Program-made: the position numbers and the translations under genes
DNA from: a virus
Virus record (IMG/VR): IMGVR_UViG_3300045988_028252
Coordinates: 1 to 6,203 of that record
DNA: 6,203 nucleotides
Direction: 5' to 3' (one strand)
Part shown: positions 1 through 6,203 of the stretch, one piece after another
Layout of the letters: each line of letters begins with the position of its first letter
Position numbering within the stretch: position 1 is the first letter of the stretch
The notes under the pieces: generated by a model
Database searches by the model: none
Seen by the model: only the letters and a program-made list of their open reading frames with translations
What the model was told of the DNA's origin: nothing

Positions 1-55
1 GAAAGGCACAGCGATATTGCTGGGCATATTTTTTAATAACATTTTCTCGTTTTTG
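1..55. repeat. Terminal direct repeat (exact copy at 6149-6203) indicating a circular genome assembled with 55-bp redundancy; unit genome length 6148 nt
   Basis: Bases 1-55 (gaaaggcacagcgatattgctgggcatattttttaataacattttctcgtttttg) reappear exactly at 6149-6203, read directly from the sequence. Confidence 0.95.
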
Positions 56-81
56 TAATTTAGATAGTTTATTATCAACAT
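1..81 (-). CDS. N-terminal 27 codons of a 46-aa hypothetical protein (MLIINYLNYKNEKMLLKNMPSNIAVPFYLLNSQRANVKIIITKKSF) whose ORF wraps across the circular junction and continues at 6148..6089
   Basis: ATG at 81..79 is preceded by a perfect AAGGAGG Shine-Dalgarno (complement of 86-93) at 5-nt spacing. The frame runs in phase off position 1 into 6148 and stops with TAA at 6091..6089, which is followed by TT-ATG of the next ORF. Confidence 0.5.
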   Translation of the reverse strand, partial: MLIINYLNYKNEKMLLKNMPSNIAVPF

Positions 82-100
82 ATTTACCTCCTTGTTTTTT

Positions 101-106
101 ATTATA
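101..106 (-). promoter_or_regulatory. Candidate -10 box (TATAAT on the minus strand) about 20 nt upstream of the first-gene ATG, with the AAGGAGG RBS at 86-93; putative main promoter of the polycistronic array
   Basis: The minus-strand sequence reads ...tatatttgtagTATAATaaaaaacAAGGAGGtaaatATG. No clear -35 hexamer is present (A-run at the -35 position). Confidence 0.35.
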
Positions 107-130
107 CTACAAATATACTCATTTTTTTTG

Positions 131-142
131 ATTCTGCAGAAT
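131..142. repeat. Perfect 12-bp palindrome attctgcagaat (contains a PstI site), flanked by a T8/A8 run; candidate operator or protein-binding site upstream of the putative promoter
   Basis: The sequence is its own reverse complement and lies about 25-36 nt upstream of the TATAAT box on the coding strand. Confidence 0.4.
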
Positions 143-194
143 TTTCTGTTATTTATCTGAAGTATTTAACTTTAATTAGCAATAGTATCTTTAA

Positions 195-400
195 GCCTCC
201 GTGGCGTTTGAGCGGTGATGGAGCAATAGAGGGCGCATAGCCCTCCTTAACGTCTAGTACCTTAGTATCGGCGGAGCCGCACACCACGACCGTAGGTCGG
301 GTGCCCGTCATTCCTTATCCCGGTTTTAAGGTAGCCGCCTTTTGGTTGAAGCCGTACCTCACCCTCCCGTTATACACTCTTATCTAATCGGATGCGTAGT
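195..400. other. GC-rich (about 55-60% GC against about 35% genome-wide) hairpin-dense non-coding island immediately downstream of the rep stop; candidate replication origin or complementary-strand initiation (ssi/primosome) structure or packaging signal
   Basis: Composition was counted over 241-360. Hairpins: 229-245 (gagggc/gcata/gccctc); 282-303 (cacc-a-cgacc/gta/ggtcg-ggtg, 9 bp with one bulge); 313-331 (cctta/9-nt loop/taagg); 329-359 (aggta...tacct). The direct repeat agccgc occurs twice. No convincing ORF and no tRNA-like fold. Confidence 0.45.
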
Positions 401-1441
401 TTATGTGTAAGAATGGTTGTTATAATATAGATTGGTGAATAAATCTATATCGTTACTGAATTGGTTTTCGCTTTTTTTCTCTTTTTTCTTTAGCTTCTCG
501 GCAACTATAGTTGCTTTAGTTTCCTTCCATTGACGTTGTTTTTTAAGTCTGTTGAGATATTTTCTTTTATCCCAATCTTTTGGATTGTCGTAATATAGTC
601 TTTCGCATCGTTCTCGCTCGCTTACGAGTACTCCCATATATCTTGATTCTTCCGTTTTTAGGTTTATTTTAATGCCTAGTACGTATACAATTCCTTTTTC
701 GATTTTATCTAGGAATAGTTTTTCACGTTCTTCTTCTGTAAATATTTTGTTTCTGTAATAAATTGGTAGATTAAGTTTTCCACCGTTTCTCATTCGGTAT
801 GATTCGTTTGTTTCGCCTTGTTTGTATACATGCTTTTTGGCATCCTCTCGCTTGAGGTATCCTGCCCCTATTCCTGCCGAGCATAATACTTTCCCTCTGA
901 ATTTTGGATGTTTTTCGTCGATTTTTAGCATGTATTTTGTGATGTATCTGATTGTTTTTTCATTTACAAAATATCCGGTGAATGTGATTCCGTATTTCCA
1001 CTTGTCTATTATTTTCTTGTCATTTCCCAAGCCCCATACTATCCCGTGAAGGTGTAATCTTTCCGTTTTCTCGTGTCCGAGTTCTGTAATAAACCAATGC
1101 TTTACGGATTTTCCGGTTAATTTCCGTACTCTCTCTAGGCATAATCTTATGGCTTTTGTTGCGATGTCGTTATTATCTTTTAATTTGTATTTTTTACTTA
1201 TTTGCTTGTATGATTTATCATCGATTGTCAGTGTTAGGAAATAGGCGTTTGGTGTTTGCCTGTTTTCCTCTGACATTCTTACTATCCATTGCCTTTGTTT
1301 TTGTTTTCTACACTCGTAACAGTCCCCGCATGCTGCTGTTACATAGCGTAGTCTTTCGTCAGGACAAATGGGCGGTATTCCGCCATTTTTTTTAGTTGGC
1401 AGATACCGCTTATTTGGTATGAGTTTAGGATATAGGCACAT
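401..1441 (-). CDS. Rolling-circle replication initiation protein (Microviridae VP4/gpA-like, HUH endonuclease superfamily), 346 aa
   Basis: N-terminal CPxxx...CGxCxxC zinc-finger-like motif. RCR motif I FLTLT (residues about 68-72). Motif II HUH as RLHLHGIVWG (residues about 128-137, nt about 1031-1060). Motif III with catalytic tyrosines YITKY (Y166/Y170, nt about 932-946). Layout is typical of microvirus Rep proteins. Confidence 0.9.
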   Translation of the reverse strand: MCLYPKLIPNKRYLPTKKNGGIPPICPDERLRYVTAACGDCYECRKQKQRQWIVRMSEENRQTPNAYFLTLTIDDKSYKQISKKYKLKDNNDIATKAIRLCLERVRKLTGKSVKHWFITELGHEKTERLHLHGIVWGLGNDKKIIDKWKYGITFTGYFVNEKTIRYITKYMLKIDEKHPKFRGKVLCSAGIGAGYLKREDAKKHVYKQGETNESYRMRNGGKLNLPIYYRNKIFTEEEREKLFLDKIEKGIVYVLGIKINLKTEESRYMGVLVSERERCERLYYDNPKDWDKRKYLNRLKKQRQWKETKATIVAEKLKKKEKKSENQFSNDIDLFTNLYYNNHSYT

Positions 1442-1454
1442 AATTATTAAATAC

Positions 1455-2480
1455 TTATTTACCTATTTTTACTCCTTGTGCTGCTCCTGCTCCTTTTAAA
1501 GCTATTTCGAGCAATCCTAGTACAATGTCTTTGACGAGCTTTTGCTCTTCAATATCCAGACCTTTTTTGCCTAGTTCGTATTTGTTTATTACGTCTTGTG
1601 CATAGGCTTCCATTTGTTCTTTTTGGATTTTGAGTGCTTCTCCTTTTTTGATAAGCTCATCCCATCCTTGTAGAATTCGTGCCGGAATTGCTTTTGCTTC
1701 CTCTTCATTGACTTTTCGTTGGCTTCCTTTAAGTAGTATTTCGGACATTAGATTTTGAAGTGTTAGAGCGCTTTCTTTAACCTTGTTTTCGATTGTTCTT
1801 CTTTTGAGGTTGTTATCGAGGTCTAAACCGTCAATTTCCGCTGTTAGTTTGTCAATTCCTTTTTTGAGGCTTTTAACGTTCCATCGTGTTTCTTCGGCTT
1901 TTTCCTTCGTCCAATCTGCGGTATTCCTTTTTAGTTCTTCTTCGGCATCTGCTACTCTGATTTGTCCTAGTATAAGTCCTCGTTTTATTTTTTCGTTTGC
2001 GGTCTGTGCTATCAGGTTGTCAATGGTAGCTTTTTGTACTTCTGAATCTACGCCTTTGATTTTATTTGCTTCGGCTTCGTTTTTGTTAGCTTGGCTTTCA
2101 TTCAGTTTTATTTGGCTTAGTGCGTTTGCCATTTCTATTCCGATTTCCTGTGCTCTTAGACCCATTCCTACCGATTGGTCTTGAGGCAGTCCTACTCCGC
2201 TTGCTGTTCCTGCTCCTTGTGTCGAGCCTCCTTGTCCTCCCATTCCATAAATTAGCCCTGGACTTAGTCCTGCTTCTTTTATGTGTTTCATTTGGTTTTC
2301 AAAGTTGGTATAATTCCACATTTCCTTTGCTTGCATTGTATTGAATTTGGCATTTTTCCTATTCAATTCTGCTTGTATTTCCATTAGTTCGTGTTGTCTC
2401 TGCCAACTTTGGTTACTTGCACTATTTGCATTGAGTGCTCCCATTAGAGCTCCTCCTATTCCCATTATTGCTCCTATCAT
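1455..2480 (-). CDS. DNA pilot / minor capsid protein (Microviridae VP2 / phiX H-like), 341 aa
   Basis: Gly/Ala-rich hydrophobic N-terminus (MIGAIMGIGGALMGALNANSASN), then a conserved AGLSPGLIYG-type motif with a second Gly-rich stretch (GMGGQGGSTQGAGTASG), then a long Lys/Glu-rich predicted coiled-coil C-terminal half. Position is between capsid and rep, as in other microviruses. Confidence 0.75.
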   Translation of the reverse strand: MIGAIMGIGGALMGALNANSASNQSWQRQHELMEIQAELNRKNAKFNTMQAKEMWNYTNFENQMKHIKEAGLSPGLIYGMGGQGGSTQGAGTASGVGLPQDQSVGMGLRAQEIGIEMANALSQIKLNESQANKNEAEANKIKGVDSEVQKATIDNLIAQTANEKIKRGLILGQIRVADAEEELKRNTADWTKEKAEETRWNVKSLKKGIDKLTAEIDGLDLDNNLKRRTIENKVKESALTLQNLMSEILLKGSQRKVNEEEAKAIPARILQGWDELIKKGEALKIQKEQMEAYAQDVINKYELGKKGLDIEEQKLVKDIVLGLLEIALKGAGAAQGVKIGK

Positions 2481-2497
2481 AATTATTTACATTTTCG

Positions 2498-2517
2498 CGC
2501 TTTGATGTTTCAAAGCG
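2498..2517. promoter_or_regulatory. 8-bp stem / 4-nt loop hairpin (cgctttga-tgtt-tcaaagcg) about 20 nt upstream of the VP2 start, inside the 161-nt intergenic region 2481-2641; regulatory or structural element
   Basis: The arms 2498-2505 and 2510-2517 are perfectly complementary. No U-tract follows on the coding strand, so this is not a canonical intrinsic terminator. Two further hairpins lie in the same IGR (2568-2585 tccgg/8-nt loop/ccgga; 2618-2637 tttgaaaa/tacc/ttttcaaa, directly after the upstream gene's stop). Confidence 0.4.
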
Positions 2518-2641
2518 ATATTCTTATTACTTGATATTAAATTGTAGGTGCGTACTTTCGTGTATTATCCGGTAATTAAACCGGACAATACTCCGAAGTG
2601 CTTGTTACCTACAAGGCTTTGAAAATACCTTTTCAAACAGT

Positions 2642-2959
2642 TTAATTTTCACTTGGTGACCCTCCATCTGCTTTATTAGGCACGTCTCCGAAATCTCCTG
2701 GCTTAGGCGCTATTTCTTTTTTCGCTATATTTCTTGTCATTTTGTCGTAGGCATCCATTGCAATATCGAACCTATCCGTACGGATGTTGTATGCTGGCAA
2801 TACTCCATCTTCTTTTGCTGTGTAAATTATTGGTGCGGTGTCTGTGATTGGTTCACCGTTTTCCAGCACTCTTGCGCATTTTGTTTCAATGCTTTCACCT
2901 TCATATATTTCTACGGAGTCTAATCTTCCGTTGTTTTTTGTTGGATTTGAATACTTCAT
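2642..2959 (-). CDS. Hypothetical acidic protein, 105 aa from ATG at 2959 (the ORF track's 118-aa version uses an upstream GTG at 2998 that overlaps the capsid gene by 26 nt); located between major capsid and pilot genes, a possible scaffolding or minor structural protein
   Basis: Continuous ORF in the gene array, 13 nt after the VP1 stop. D/E/G/P-rich composition. No recognisable motif. Confidence 0.5.
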   Translation of the reverse strand: MKYSNPTKNNGRLDSVEIYEGESIETKCARVLENGEPITDTAPIIYTAKEDGVLPAYNIRTDRFDIAMDAYDKMTRNIAKKEIAPKPGDFGDVPNKADGGSPSEN

Positions 2960-2972
2960 GATGTTATAATTT

Positions 2973-4904
2973 TTATAGATTAGGAATTTGTTTTGCACTG
3001 ATTAGGCGTCTCACTTTGATGTCAAATTTTGTTTGTACCCAAAAATTCATAGCGTCTAGATTTGTGTCTGCAAAGATGTAATTGAATTTTACTGGGTCAA
3101 TATAAGTTGTTAAATCTTCTATCTGTCCGTTTGTTGCCATTGAGTAATTGCGGTTAAGTACCATGAAACTTTCTGGCATTCCTGGCGCGAAGTTTCCGAA
3201 TGTTCTGTTTACATTTGTCATGTAATTTATCCATGCCACAGTCTTTCCCGCTGCTGTTCTTGCGAGTAATGGTCCGTCTGATAGGTAATCTGTCCACCAT
3301 GCCCTTTCTCCGTTTAATGAATCTTGGTATCCGATTCCGTCAAGTGCTGGTTTGTGCCAATCGTTCATGGTTTTTAGGTAACTATCCCATGTGTTCCCCT
3401 GTCCGTAGTCGATACGTGGCGTGATTGAGCATATACACATTATGTAGCATGGTTCCGTTACCTTGATTCGAATGTGTCCGCCTTTTTGTCTTCCTGTTGT
3501 TACGCCTCTTCCGGCTAGCGTTCCTAATGGTTCGTCCTGGCTTGCGCTGTTGCTTATTACTTCTTGAAATACGATTTCTTGGCTTACACCCCCTTCAAAC
3601 ATTGGCGTTTCGCATCTTTCCATATAATTCCCGCCTGTATATACTGTTTCTAGCCAATCTCTGTAAGTTCCTCCGCTTACTGCGATTCTGTTTAGGAAAT
3701 TATATACTTTTTGTGCTAGATTCAGTGCGTCCATGGATAGTATGCCGTCTGCCACATCTACTGCACTTGCTTCGTTAATTCCGTTCACTCCTTCTATCCA
3801 TTCGGTGTTTATCCAATTTTGATATAAGTCGCTATTGTATGTTTTTAGACATAGTCCGTATTGTGGGCTATTTGTTGTTAGATTCTTCTCTCTTGTTCTT
3901 TCTGCAAAGTTTATAAATGGCCTTACACTCATTTTTGAATTTGCTAAGTCAAATACGGTATCTCCAGGAGTCATTAATATATTATCCCTGATTGTGTCTA
4001 GATTTTCCAACGGGAATTTTTCTAGTGATGTTCTTTTTGTTGAATATATCGCTGTTACATACCATGTTTGCCCTGCCGGTATTTTGGTTATTGCAATTTT
4101 TACTTCGTCTGTTTGTACACTGAAATTTCCTATTTTTGATGGAGTTAACACTTGTTCTCTTGCGTTTTGTGATGTTTTAACTCTCAGCATTAGTTCTTTT
4201 TCGGTTATTGTAGCCGGAGTTATTGTGATTGTTTTTCCGCTTGTTATTTCTCCTAGAATTTGCGGTATGTTGTCAGCGTTTGGAATTGGATTACTATTTA
4301 TTGTTGCGGTTATTTTTGGAGATGTTCCAATCATATAAAAGTTTTCTTCCTGTGTGTTTGCGTAGTAATTTTTAAATATATCAAAATATGATAGTATAGG
4401 TAACGCATTTTTGCTTACTGACTTTTCGCCACTTTTTGGCGTGTTCGCGTATCCTCTGATCCCTAGGTATGCTAGTAGGCAACTTGGATTTACTTGTATC
4501 CATTGTTTTTCTTCGTTTGACGGTGTGTCTGTTAATGTTTTTATGTTTACACTTATTTGAGGTAATTTTACTTGCTCCATGTTTAGCCCAATTTTTGTCC
4601 GGTTATTGTGTAACCAACTGTTGTACAGCCTTACCGGGCAAGTATACATGTGATGTTCTAGTTTGAATGAGCCAAATAGAGGTCCCGTTGTTGGATGTGT
4701 GAGTGCATTTGAATCTACGTCAATATCGAATGTATCCCCTTTTTGTCCTACTAGGCACAGGTTTGGAACTAGTGTTCCTGGGCTTTGTGTGTTTCTTACA
4801 ATTGTTGATAAGTCGTGTGTTGACATGTTGTAGTCATGTAGACTAACTGACATTTTGTTATTGTCTCCTATGGTATTTTTACCAATGTTTTTTTCTATTG
4901 CCAT
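2973..4904 (-). CDS. Major capsid protein (Microviridae VP1 / phiX F-like jelly-roll MCP), 643 aa
   Basis: The N-terminal region matches the conserved microvirus MCP signature (G-LVP-------GDTF----------T-P--G-LFGSF----H-Y-CPVRLY--W). Size is typical of gokusho- and alpavirus-like MCPs. A strong SD AAGGAGGA lies 8 nt upstream of the ATG, embedded in the 3' end of the preceding ORF. Confidence 0.9.
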   Translation of the reverse strand: MAIEKNIGKNTIGDNNKMSVSLHDYNMSTHDLSTIVRNTQSPGTLVPNLCLVGQKGDTFDIDVDSNALTHPTTGPLFGSFKLEHHMYTCPVRLYNSWLHNNRTKIGLNMEQVKLPQISVNIKTLTDTPSNEEKQWIQVNPSCLLAYLGIRGYANTPKSGEKSVSKNALPILSYFDIFKNYYANTQEENFYMIGTSPKITATINSNPIPNADNIPQILGEITSGKTITITPATITEKELMLRVKTSQNAREQVLTPSKIGNFSVQTDEVKIAITKIPAGQTWYVTAIYSTKRTSLEKFPLENLDTIRDNILMTPGDTVFDLANSKMSVRPFINFAERTREKNLTTNSPQYGLCLKTYNSDLYQNWINTEWIEGVNGINEASAVDVADGILSMDALNLAQKVYNFLNRIAVSGGTYRDWLETVYTGGNYMERCETPMFEGGVSQEIVFQEVISNSASQDEPLGTLAGRGVTTGRQKGGHIRIKVTEPCYIMCICSITPRIDYGQGNTWDSYLKTMNDWHKPALDGIGYQDSLNGERAWWTDYLSDGPLLARTAAGKTVAWINYMTNVNRTFGNFAPGMPESFMVLNRNYSMATNGQIEDLTTYIDPVKFNYIFADTNLDAMNFWVQTKFDIKVRRLISAKQIPNL

Positions 4905-4907
4905 GGT

Positions 4908-5189
4908 TTAGTCCTCCTTTTTTTTAGTATCGTTAACAATTCCTTTTGCGACTTTTTTCCCGGTACGTTTGAGTTTTTTTTCGTATTCGTCTGCCTCTTT
5001 ACATGCATATATCATTGCTGCAACTAGATTCCAATCTACGGAGTTGATTTTTTCTTCTGCTGCTTCACGTGTTGGAAATTTTTCAGTTGTTGCTAAATGG
5101 TTTCCAATTACAATCATGTATTCTTTTTCTTCTTGTGTTGTTGGTAATACTTTGAATACATCTTTCATGTCGTTAAATTCTTTTTCCAT
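4908..5189 (-). CDS. Hypothetical 93-aa protein with acidic N-terminal body and strongly basic C-terminal tail (KKLKRTGKKVAKGIVNDTKKKED); possible DNA-binding / packaging (J/VP8-like) or scaffold protein
   Basis: ORF immediately upstream of the MCP gene (3-nt gap), coupled to the upstream gene by a TAA-AA-ATG junction. The functional assignment is by position and charge pattern only. Confidence 0.55.
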   Translation of the reverse strand: MEKEFNDMKDVFKVLPTTQEEKEYMIVIGNHLATTEKFPTREAAEEKINSVDWNLVAAMIYACKEADEYEKKLKRTGKKVAKGIVNDTKKKED

Positions 5190-5191
5190 TT

Positions 5192-5398
5192 TTAATAGTT
5201 TTTAGGATTAATATTAATTTTTGTACTATCAACGCTTGACGTTGTCGTTTGGTCGGTCTTTTGCGTTGAGTTTTGATTGTTTTTGCTGACGCTTAAACTC
5301 ATTGTGCAACTTTGCACACAAAGCGTAGTAATGATTGCAATTATTGCGGTCGAAATAGCTCGGATAATTTCTACCCATTGCGTCCCGTTGATTTTCAT
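5192..5398 (-). CDS. Hypothetical 68-aa single-pass membrane protein (TM segment WVEIIRAISTAIIAIITTLCV, Ser/Thr-rich hydrophilic tail); candidate lysis (amurin-like) or membrane-targeting accessory protein
   Basis: ORF-track ORF. Its ATG overlaps the stop of the upstream 30-aa ORF in an ATGA arrangement, and its own stop is followed by AA-ATG of the next gene. Hydrophobic core is about 21 residues. Confidence 0.5.
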   Translation of the reverse strand: MKINGTQWVEIIRAISTAIIAIITTLCVQSCTMSLSVSKNNQNSTQKTDQTTTSSVDSTKININPKNY

Positions 5399-5487
5399 AA
5401 GTTTCCATTTTTAATGTATAAATAACTTCCGCCTATGAAGGCGATTATTAATAGTAATATTACTATTCCGAATACTTCTCTAGGCAT
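5395..5487 (-). CDS. Hypothetical 30-aa hydrophobic peptide (MPREVFGIVILLLIIAFIGGSYLYIKNGNL), a single predicted TM helix; not in the ORF track because it is shorter than the cutoff
   Basis: ATG at 5487..5485 lies 2 nt after the TAA of the upstream 84-aa ORF (taaACatg). Its TGA stop at 5397..5395 overlaps the ATG of the downstream 68-aa ORF (ATGA). It fills what would otherwise be the only gap in the small-gene block. Confidence 0.45.
   Translation of the reverse strand: MPREVFGIVILLLIIAFIGGSYLYIKNGNL
5450..5467. repeat. Perfect 18-bp AT-rich palindrome aatagtaatattactatt, embedded in the 30-aa TM-peptide ORF
   Basis: The sequence equals its own reverse complement (9+9, no spacer). An adjacent 5-bp-stem hairpin cgcct-atga-aggcg lies at 5430-5443. 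Confidence 0.6.
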
Positions 5488-5489
5488 GT

Positions 5490-5744
5490 TTAAAATAATT
5501 TAAGTTGTTTTTGATTCCATTTTTCTAAATCTTCGTTGTCTTTGTCATAAGTTTTTTCACATATTAACCTCCTTTCTTGTTTTGTGAAGATGTATTTTTT
5601 TGTAATAACATCTTCTTCTAGTTCATAACATATTTTTTTCATTTTTATTGATGTGTGAAAGTACACATAGTTTTTTAACTCCTGAAATGTATTGAAAATA
5701 TGTCCGTCTGCTTCATAATTTCTAATCTTTTTCGGTTTTTTCAT
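5490..5744 (-). CDS. Hypothetical 84-aa protein (K/E-rich, basic N-terminus MKKPKKIRN)
   Basis: ORF-track ORF within the co-oriented gene array. Its start overlaps the 3' end of the upstream 67-aa ORF by 23 nt. No SD. Confidence 0.5.
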   Translation of the reverse strand: MKKPKKIRNYEADGHIFNTFQELKNYVYFHTSIKMKKICYELEEDVITKKYIFTKQERRLICEKTYDKDNEDLEKWNQKQLKLF

Positions 5745-5925
5745 TTTCGTTAGGATATAATTTCCATGATTCTACTACTGCTATTATACGCTCGTTTTTT
5801 GGTACGACTGCTTTTGCAATTGTTACTGCTATTTTGTATGTACATTCTGTTGGTATTTCTTTTACCATTACATGAGACGTAGGATTGTCTCCCGTTGTGA
5901 TTACTGAAAATTTTGTTGCTGCCAT
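5722..5925 (-). CDS. Hypothetical 67-aa protein
   Basis: ORF-track ORF. Its ATG lies 2 nt after the stop of the upstream 52-aa ORF (taaTTatgg junction). Confidence 0.45.
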   Translation of the reverse strand: MAATKFSVITTGDNPTSHVMVKEIPTECTYKIAVTIAKAVVPKNERIIAVVESWKLYPNENEKTEKD

Positions 5926-5927
5926 AA

Positions 5928-6086
5928 TTATCTGTTTTTTATATTTTTAGTTTTCTGTATTTCTTCAATTATTAATACTATTGTAGTAATTAGCGCTTCT
6001 TTTTCTTTTTTGGAGCATTTTAATTGTCTTTCTGATTTGAATTTCCAGAGCGCTTGTTCTAATCTCATTAGTTCTTCTGATTCCAT
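5928..6086 (-). CDS. Hypothetical 52-aa protein (MESEELMRLEQALWKFKSERQLKCSKKEKEALITTIVLIIEEIQKTKNIKNR), below the ORF-track cutoff
   Basis: ATG at 6086..6084 lies 2 nt after the TAA of the junction-spanning 46-aa ORF. Its own TAA at 5930..5928 is followed by TT-ATG of the 67-aa ORF. The identical taattatgg junction occurs at both ends. Confidence 0.45.
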   Translation of the reverse strand: MESEELMRLEQALWKFKSERQLKCSKKEKEALITTIVLIIEEIQKTKNIKNR

Positions 6087-6088
6087 AA

Positions 6089-6148
6089 TTAAAAAGATTT
6101 TTTAGTTATTATTATTTTTACATTAGCTCTTTGTGAATTTAATAAGTA
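6089..6148 (-). CDS. C-terminal 19 codons plus stop of the junction-spanning 46-aa hypothetical protein (continuation of feature 1..81)
   Basis: In-frame continuation across the circular junction. The stop TAA is at 6091..6089, immediately followed by TT then the ATG of the next ORF (the taattatgg junction motif). Confidence 0.5.
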   Translation of the reverse strand, partial: YLLNSQRANVKIIITKKSF

Positions 6149-6203
6149 GAAAGGCACAGCGATATTGCTGGGCATATTTTTTAATAACATTTTCTCGTTT
6201 TTG

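Follow-up and report, generated by a model that had tools for sequence, protein, structure and literature searches.

Microviruses dominate the single-stranded DNA (ssDNA) viromes of the gut, and to our knowledge the cis-acting signals for replication in Microviridae have hardly been mapped outside the phiX174/G4 group. In phiX174 and G4 the virion strand is the coding strand, and it is taken as such for Chp2 and SpV4; in phages of the phiX174 type, packaging is tied to synthesis driven by Rep and the origin (ori), and no separate signal is needed. Outside this family, the intergenic region of phages f1 and M13 consists of hairpins on the packaged strand that bring together a complementary-strand origin, a packaging signal and the nick site for the viral strand, and the single-strand origins (sso) of rolling-circle plasmids are read by the host, orientation-dependent, interchangeable and not strictly essential, being found with unrelated Rep genes. 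In this work, we analyzed a stretch of viral DNA of 6,203 nucleotides (nt) (IMG/VR record IMGVR_UViG_3300045988_028252, positions 1 to 6,203; hereafter, the window), focusing on a GC-rich intergenic island at the 3' end of its rep gene. The island is a conserved element with covarying helices and DNA-type loop motifs, which is exchanged as a cassette between microviruses and always lies on the T-rich strand. From these sequence features we infer, with a probability of roughly 0.6, that it serves as a horizontally exchanged, strand-specific single-strand origin cassette, comparable to the G4 complementary-strand origin (oric) or to a plasmid sso, and that it acts as folded ssDNA on the window plus strand.

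The closest described elements share a particular kind of hairpin. The GCGNAGC "mini-hairpin DNA" is extraordinarily stable as DNA and far weaker as RNA (Hirao review, PMC13037366). Mini-hairpins are found at single-strand initiation sites: CGGCGAAAGCCG, which is related to GCGNAGC and was shown to bind single-stranded-DNA-binding protein (SSB) poorly, belongs to hairpin I of the G4 complementary-strand origin, and GCGTTAGC occurs in St-1 and alpha3; other examples are CCGAAGG in ssiA of RSF1010 and GCGGAGC in the promoters of the N4 virion RNA polymerase (PMC13037366). In the G4 record we found both the CGGCGAAAGCCG sequence and the annotated complementary-strand origin; the F-G intergenic region, where this experimentally annotated origin lies, is a GC-rich island of three hairpins (58% GC vs 46% for the genome). 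Among uncultured phages, the reekeekee- and roodoodoo-microviruses carry conserved intergenic hairpins with compensatory substitutions, for which a part in negative-strand synthesis was tentatively suggested (Olo Ndela et al., 2022, PMC9865509). Further, microvirus lineages are described as rarely, if ever, trading genes across families (Kirchberger, 2022), and genes on the complementary strand are essentially unreported in Microviridae (Roux et al., 2012).

An earlier note on this DNA, made from its letters alone, had singled out positions 195-400 as a GC-rich island in an AT-rich genome, intergenic at the 3' end of rep and lacking a convincing open reading frame (ORF), and these points were borne out. 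Positions 195-400 have a GC content of 55.3% and positions 241-360 one of 56.7%, compared with 36.4% in the window as a whole, and the highest value of any other 206-nt segment is 48.5%. The ORF of 52 amino acids (aa) that had been reported to overlap the island does exist (153-311, minus strand) and opens with an ATG; it has no Pfam match, and 27 of 43 related islands, that of the closest relative (L036) included, contain no ORF of at least 30 aa on that strand. As substitutions in the island follow base-pair covariation and not codon periodicity, the chance that a real small protein gene accounts for the GC richness is next to negligible.

In a blastn search against phage records, 13 other gut microviruses matched the island (74-88% identity), the matches falling nearly always in unannotated DNA, and some of these genomes barely align to the window outside it. 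To collect copies, we scanned IMG/VR and metagenomes for sequence patterns and searched with an nhmmer profile and with a covariance model. This collection yielded 78 aligned copies (71 distinct) and 99 non-redundant microvirus genomes carrying the element, which is approximately 200 nt long, always intergenic and present once per genome. All IMG/VR matches to a strict pattern for its 30-nt core lie on contigs of 4.0-6.6 kb, and metagenome matches lie mostly on microvirus-sized contigs, a few longer ones joining phage to bacterial-like DNA. Contigs L151, L157, L172, L178 and L189 (handles of this form denote sequences in our comparison) are of the joined kind, with 60-66% GC in three and genes for SusC/SusD-like lipoproteins in L151 and L178; since the junctions lie inside phage genes (pilot or capsid), they look like assembly chimeras, not prophages, and give no reliable assignment of a host.

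The sharp contrast in composition, the variable position and orientation of the element, and a phylogeny incongruent with that of the genomes could also be expected of a host fragment, an attachment or dif-like site, or a selfish insert resembling a miniature inverted-repeat transposable element, with no role in replication. The contig distribution just described argues against this, as does a scan for the core pattern in one genome per species from 185,579 bacterial and archaeal species, which returned only four matches, all in GC-rich coding DNA and devoid of flanking similarity, about the number that chance predicts by our own estimate. Moreover, the element is single-copy, intergenic and always on one strand, its unpaired sequence is under strong purifying selection, and no terminal inverted repeats were noticed in the alignments, although this was not tested systematically. 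An origin of this type is, in our opinion, extremely unlikely. The suggestion in the earlier note of a horizontally acquired fragment therefore holds in that the element moves horizontally, the movement being between microviruses, and fails with regard to a derivation from the host.

Covarying hairpins, which the same note had proposed to look for in related genomes, were found in the form of four helices, P1 to P4, with 23 base pairs in total (coordinates of these and all other features are collected in Table 1). Over the aligned copies, 97.9% of 1,598 cells are paired, and 19 of the 23 pairs display compensatory changes in which both sides changed; none of 500 shuffles reached the observed values, and slid controls were paired at 34-45%. 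The hairpins previously drawn at 229-245 and 282-303 coincide exactly with P2 and P4 and show compensatory changes, whereas those at 313-331 and 329-359 can be drawn but fall in the variable 3' domain, which has no consensus structure; two helices backed by covariation, P1 (199-215) and P3 (269-279), had not been listed. RNAalifold and a scan of column pairs gave no consistent long-range or 3'-domain helices. The AGCCGC motif is duplicated, as had been stated, with one copy at 275 in the 3' arm of P3 and the other at 333 within the conserved AGGTAGC motif, and the duplication is not shown to be significant. A short form of the element (L093, L100, L101 and L102) lacks the 3' domain, and its P4 is directly followed by TATACCCC. 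In this short form P3 reads CCGTCGACGG and P4 reads CATCAGCACGC…GCGTGCGGTG, and the sequences that harbor it are unusually long microvirus-like IMG/VR contigs of 7.1-9.1 kb. Taken together, the island is confirmed as a conserved, structured, non-coding element.

The loops of the helices are of the DNA type. In most copies P3 has the form CGGCG(A/G)AGCCG: 19 distinct copies have CGGCGAAGCCG and 10, the window among them, have CGGCGGAGCCG, and most of the others also have a 3-nt purine loop. The loops found in P4 include GTA, GAA and GTTA, and GCGTTAGC is present in two variants of P4. On the minus strand the same loops would be pyrimidine loops, and on the plus strand G.T wobbles outnumber A.C mismatches by 51 to 10. 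The proposal of a replication origin advanced in the earlier note is thus sustained as to its kind, the best match for this conserved structured non-coding element being a single-strand origin of the G4/phiX type, and has to be revised as to the strand: the minus strand had been regarded as the virion and functional one, and the plus strand is favored by the loops of the GNA type, the G.T wobbles and the T-rich mutational skew, all of which lie on it.

The same covarying helices and conserved loops, together with the tolerance of G.U pairs on the plus strand and the presence of both orientations relative to genes, as for a self-contained gene, would also suit an independent structured non-coding RNA (ncRNA) of about 200 nt, transcribed from the plus strand by a promoter of its own in this genome and co-transcribed in others, with a trans-acting or anti-defence function. 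A weak TAnnTTT-like box, TATCTTTA, which we presume to resemble the Bacteroidetes promoter consensus, lies just upstream in the subgroup of the window (185-192); however, it is unconserved in other subgroups, no sigma-70-like promoter was found in 1-700, and in genomes with the sense orientation the element usually begins 8 nt past the stop of the pilot gene, leaving no space for a promoter. A search of the whole window against Rfam 15 (E<=10) gave three chance matches elsewhere and none in 1-700, where the island lies, so that the Rfam/Infernal check suggested in the earlier note was negative, and ARAGORN detected no transfer RNA or transfer-messenger RNA in the island. A terminator-like match at 321-337 was discarded, as it sits in the variable 3' domain and is unconserved. 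Besides, the loops are mostly GNA triloops and GCGNAGC, much weaker in RNA, and an RNA gene would have no reason to follow the T-rich strand over at least two transfers. We therefore disfavor the ncRNA explanation and consider it quite improbable. A further possibility that had been raised, a small structured RNA at the 3' end of the polycistronic mRNA, does not agree with the data either, since the genes run opposite to the element in this clade and parallel to it in others, and the element is hence not part of a fixed 3' untranslated region.

Of the 99 non-redundant genomes, 56 have the element antisense to the genes and 43 have it in the sense orientation. It is antisense, and convergent with the 3' end of rep, in the window and its capsid clade, and other lineages have it in the sense orientation; in L017, a genome of the latter type, the island is essentially the sole sizeable non-coding region, as it is in some other sense-orientation genomes. 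As to base composition, all 99 genomes carry the element on whichever strand is rich in T at four-fold sites. The coding-strand frequencies at these sites are T 0.64 and A 0.14 in same-orientation genomes and A 0.64 and T 0.14 in opposite-orientation genomes, with C and G at about 0.11 in both. With A at 0.67 and T at 0.10, the coding strand of the window mirrors that of typical T-rich microviruses, and an A-rich coding strand is shared by all 45 capsid relatives of the window (L044-L088; identity down to 40%), be the element present or not. Outside the island, non-coding DNA likewise has an excess of T on the plus strand (T 0.43, A 0.30). For reference, the four-fold T frequency on the coding strand is 0.52 in phiX174, 0.47 in G4, 0.50 in Chp2 and 0.67 in SpV4.

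The simplest reading of these data would be that the plus strand of the window, which is antisense to every gene, is the one exposed as ssDNA and hence packaged. Orientation and base composition thus suggest antisense-strand packaging, which would be unusual for the family. We give slightly better than even odds to the broader proposition that the whole capsid clade (the 45 relatives sampled, to 40% capsid identity) constitutes "negative-sense" Microviridae, in which the polarity of replication and packaging, as marked by the origin cassette, by a second non-coding module (IG2, described below) and by the T-rich mutational skew, would be opposite to that of the gene block, the virions would contain the strand complementary to every gene, and origin cassettes would be traded between microvirus lineages.

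At least two transfers of the element between deeply divergent microviruses have taken place, and its placement on the T-rich strand was kept each time. The copies of the window and L001, which are antisense, are 72-87% identical to those of L017, L128 and L089, which are sense, and the antisense copies of L003 and L021 are 72-78% identical to the sense copy of L002. The classes of genomes that share these subtypes have capsids about 22% identical and Reps that blastp cannot align, the Reps of both classes matching PF23343. Such exchange implies shared hosts, and shared hosts make codon selection a less likely cause of the opposite A/T preferences. These observations also bear on the possibility that the island is another type of ssDNA signal, for packaging or encapsidation, or for nucleating the condensation of the genome in the capsid. 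The strand rule and the conserved ssDNA-type hairpins would fit such a signal equally well, and in f1 the packaging hairpin lies beside the origins; nevertheless, a capsid-specific signal would not be expected to transfer freely between phages with capsids so different, and packaging of the phiX174 type is coupled to Rep/ori-driven synthesis, which makes a signal of this sort very unlikely.

At the equivalent site, L072, L073 and L086 carry a different GC-rich structured island. This alternative family (L072 2144-2516, L073 1428-1985, L086 4204-4862) lies after rep on the antisense strand, displays covarying stems and has the form …GGTCGAGC-N8-GCTCGTCGCCAGYCGGGCGAGACCGRCC…; TTGAAGAGGAAAGCCC / TTGAAACGGAAAGCCC repeats come after it in L073 and L086.

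We propose that the circular ssDNA genome would be coated by SSB upon entering the cell, and that the four conserved hairpins would remain folded, P3 and P4 being mini-hairpins of the GNA/GNNA type, which are reported as poor SSB binders. The hairpins would then offer the near-invariant unpaired junction at 246-268 to a priming enzyme of the host, either a primase or an RNA polymerase, which would begin complementary-strand synthesis and lead to the double-stranded replicative form. The cassette would be functional only on the strand that becomes single-stranded and is packaged and, because it would be read by host enzymes and not by the phage Rep, the signal could be swapped between very different microviruses in shared hosts. 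It may additionally, or instead, carry a viral-strand nick site.

Regarding its resemblance to known systems, we suggest that the element works like G4 oric, sso, phiX174 ori(+) and the f1 region, and not that it is a member of any of them. As in the oric of G4, St-1 and alpha3, it is non-coding, richer in GC than the genome and made up of several hairpins, including an SSB-resistant mini-hairpin of the GCGNAGC/GCGNNAGC type, and the St-1/alpha3 motif recurs in some P4 copies, as mentioned above; in contrast, the number and order of the helices differ, the host here is not E. coli, and the element is exchanged among distant phages and antisense to genes in the clade of the window. Plasmid sso (ssoA, ssoU, ssoT, ssoW) are likewise non-coding, highly structured and read by the host, with a length of about 150-300 nt and a strict dependence on orientation. 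They are also interchangeable cassettes that accompany unrelated Reps and can be dispensed with or replaced, which is paralleled by the shared subtypes of the element and by the presence of another island, or none, at its site. The covarying helices and the consistent one-strand placement point to a function that depends on orientation as in sso. The element differs in that it resides in phages and not in plasmids, and the likeness is drawn from behavior, not from sequence homology. A TAGCG(T/A) hexamer in the junction of most copies (TAACGT in the window), which we take to resemble the CS-6 TAGCGT of ssoA, lies outside a hairpin loop. The f1/M13 region, which belongs to an unrelated family and has no sequence similarity to the element, offers a model for the coexistence of a nick-like motif and priming hairpins, whereas the window has two separate modules, the island and IG2. 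Finally, the reekeekee and roodoodoo hairpins are also intergenic, with compensatory substitutions and conserved loops, in uncultured microviruses; unlike the element, they belong to other clades, have other sequences, are single and clade-specific, and have been associated with no inter-clade exchange or question of polarity. In the literature we found no report of the island, of its exchange as a cassette or of inverted polarity in a microvirus.

The nick-like motif deserves a separate discussion, as the island might instead be the viral-strand (+) origin, with Rep/VP4 nicking the ACCTTG^ATATC-like motif at 259-269, between P2 and P3, so as to begin and terminate rolling-circle synthesis, in the same way as protein A does at CAACTTG^ATATT in phiX174. 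In a gapless alignment to the 30-nt gene A protein site of phiX174, the 18 consensus matches cluster at the ends, with 10 of the first 11 positions (the recognition end, CA-CTTGATAT) and ACCAC at positions 26-30 (the binding end). Furthermore, the motif, which hardly varies, is unpaired and belongs to the T-rich strand, a hairpin with a GAA loop, CCCCGAAGGGG, likewise follows the phiX174 origin, and the Reps of both genome classes belong to PF23343. On the other hand, a site specific for Rep should co-vary with it, yet the same core, even in its rare CCTTAGTATC variant, accompanies Reps that cannot be aligned (window vs L017). The ACCAC stretch forms part of the paired P4 helix and is replaced through covariation in some copies (ACTAC, ATCAG); the AT-rich spacer of phiX174 has its counterpart in a GC-rich hairpin, P3; the copy in the window has AG in place of GA at the presumed cleavage site; and the element is intergenic, whereas the phiX174 origin is inside rep. 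The island is also missing from some members of the clade.

A better match to the nick region is located in IG2, the second non-coding module, which holds ACTTGATATTAA (2528-2539) between hairpins, identical to the phiX174 nick region at 12 of 12 positions. The 5' 80 nt of IG2, comprising a covarying hairpin followed by TTACTTGATAT and then GTGCGTAC, are conserved throughout the clade, including genomes without the GC island, and IG2 is a candidate for a rival or companion origin. Since the island core occurs with unalignable Reps, ACCAC is paired and covarying, and IG2 offers the better match clade-wide, we rank the complementary-strand origin first and consider that the island might also, or alternatively, serve as a nick site. 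That the island is the viral-strand origin is thus unlikely, and that role is compatible with the complementary-strand origin, as both can coexist in the manner of the adjacent origins of f1. Other CTTRRTAT matches in these genomes fall within capsid coding sequence and are due to the conserved peptides GIGYQD and NLDISEV. One of them, TCTTGGTATC (3323-3331, plus strand), is on the T-rich strand inside the capsid gene of most clade members, and is probably not an origin, because conservation of the GIGYQD peptide encoded on the opposite strand explains its own.

Several observations weigh against a single-strand origin cassette on a packaged plus strand. The folding energy of the island, calculated for both strands as DNA and RNA, is no better than that of dinucleotide shuffles (z of -0.07 and -1.23 for the plus and minus strands as DNA, and of -0.9 and -0.5 as RNA), so the "stable" hairpins of the earlier note cannot be upheld on energetic grounds and the case for structure rests on covariation; a high density of hairpins would not in itself point to a function. 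The excess of G.T wobbles is partly expected from a C-to-T bias. When G4 3884-4019 was read against the element, no similarity was found beyond the 11-12-nt mini-hairpin and, as only this is common, the element is not a member of the G4 family by homology. In origins of the G4 type, priming is DnaG-dependent and rifampicin-resistant and begins at a CTG immediately 3' of hairpin I. No CTG, the start trinucleotide of the E. coli primase, is conserved 3' of P3, although this preference is host-specific. Two clade members, L085 and L087, have no GC-rich island whatsoever; from the members without it, the cassette is dispensable or replaceable. The antisense copies are all within one capsid clade, and the inversion between genes and skew thus represents a single evolutionary event; the rule observed in 99 of 99 genomes consequently depends on few independent events, with at least two transfers. 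In addition, the coding strand of phiMH2K, an isolated gokushovirus of Bdellovibrio (L134, NC_002643), is A-rich and G-poor at four-fold sites (A 0.45, C 0.25, T 0.23, G 0.07), without being a mirror image of G4, which makes the skew a fallible sign of the packaged strand. The packaged-strand polarity of phiMH2K itself is perhaps worth a look, this phage being unlike phiX174, G4, Chp2 and SpV4 in its composition.

The element constitutes a testable origin candidate, with defined helices and motifs, in roughly a hundred genomes. It is also a non-coding module that moves between lineages described as rarely, if ever, trading genes, and its orientation rule makes the assumption that virions contain the coding strand directly testable. 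If the clade does package the antisense strand, family-level descriptions would need revision, its extreme A-rich codon usage would reflect mutation and not selection, and both strand-aware virome methods and annotation pipelines would have to adapt.

Table 1. Coordinates of the conserved element, its parts and other features of the window.
Feature	Position	Strand	Remarks
Whole conserved element (GC-rich island)	185..394	+	Covariance model from 34 homologues: 191.8 bits, E=3e-47, model positions 1-210
Helix P1, CCGT/GCGG stem, conserved loop GGCGTTTGA	199..215	+	96% paired; 2/4 pairs compensatory (GC/CG/UA)
Helix P2, GAGGGC-GCATA-GCCCTC	229..245	+	96.7% paired; 6/6 pairs compensatory
Unpaired junction CTTAACGTCTAGTACCTTAGTAT (consensus CTTAGCGTCTAGCACCTTGATAT)	246..268	+	Near-invariant over 71 distinct copies; phiX174-nick-like ACCTT(G/A)(A/G)TATC at 259-269
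30-nt stretch in gapless alignment to the phiX174 viral-strand origin (CAACTTG^ATATTAATAACACTATAGACCAC)	258..287	+	Consensus 18/30, window copy 14/30 (read by eye)
Helix P3, CGGCGGAGCCG (consensus CGGCGAAGCCG), GCGNAGC-type DNA mini-hairpin, 3-nt GNA loop	269..279	+	100% paired; 3/4 pairs compensatory
Helix P4, CACC-A-CGACC GTA GGTCG-GGTG, bulged A, GNA/GNNA loop	282..303	+	98.6% paired; 8/9 pairs compensatory
Variable 3' domain, invariant AGGTAG(C) motif at 329-335	304..365	+	Lineage-specific; absent from short form; no consensus structure
Terminal motif CCCGTTATACAC (family consensus CCC-N-N-TATAC-N-CC)	366..377	+	Kept even in short form, right after P4
Rep/VP4 rolling-circle initiator	401-1441	-	Pfam PF23343 REP_ORF2-G2P, E=2e-10; HUH 'HLHGIVW', 'YITKY'; convergent with element
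Pilot protein	1455-2480	-	
IG2, second non-coding module between the 118-aa ORF and the pilot gene	2481..2641	+	Three very stable hairpins, z=-6.87, 0/200 shuffles
118-aa ORF	2642-2998	-	
Major capsid protein	2973-4904	-	Pfam Phage_F weak, E=2.4e-5, slightly under curated cutoff; name from homology to annotated microvirus capsid genes

As for the genome itself, the ends of the window overlap in a 55-nt terminal direct repeat (1-55 = 6149-6203), and the window therefore represents a complete circular microvirus genome of about 6.15 kb (unit of about 6,148 nt). Every long ORF is on the minus strand, and the position of Rep/VP4 places the island directly downstream of rep. The closest GenBank record is a Microviridae genome from the human gut, with 81% identity.

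An AT-rich motif, (A)CTTTAAC/ACTTTAAT, was also observed at 150-194 on the plus strand, 5' of the GC island, and in the equivalent place in L011, L072, L073 and L086. Motifs of this type occur in the clade regardless of the type of island, sometimes as a direct repeat (TACTTTAACAT twice in L072), and may represent an iteron, nick site or promoter element.

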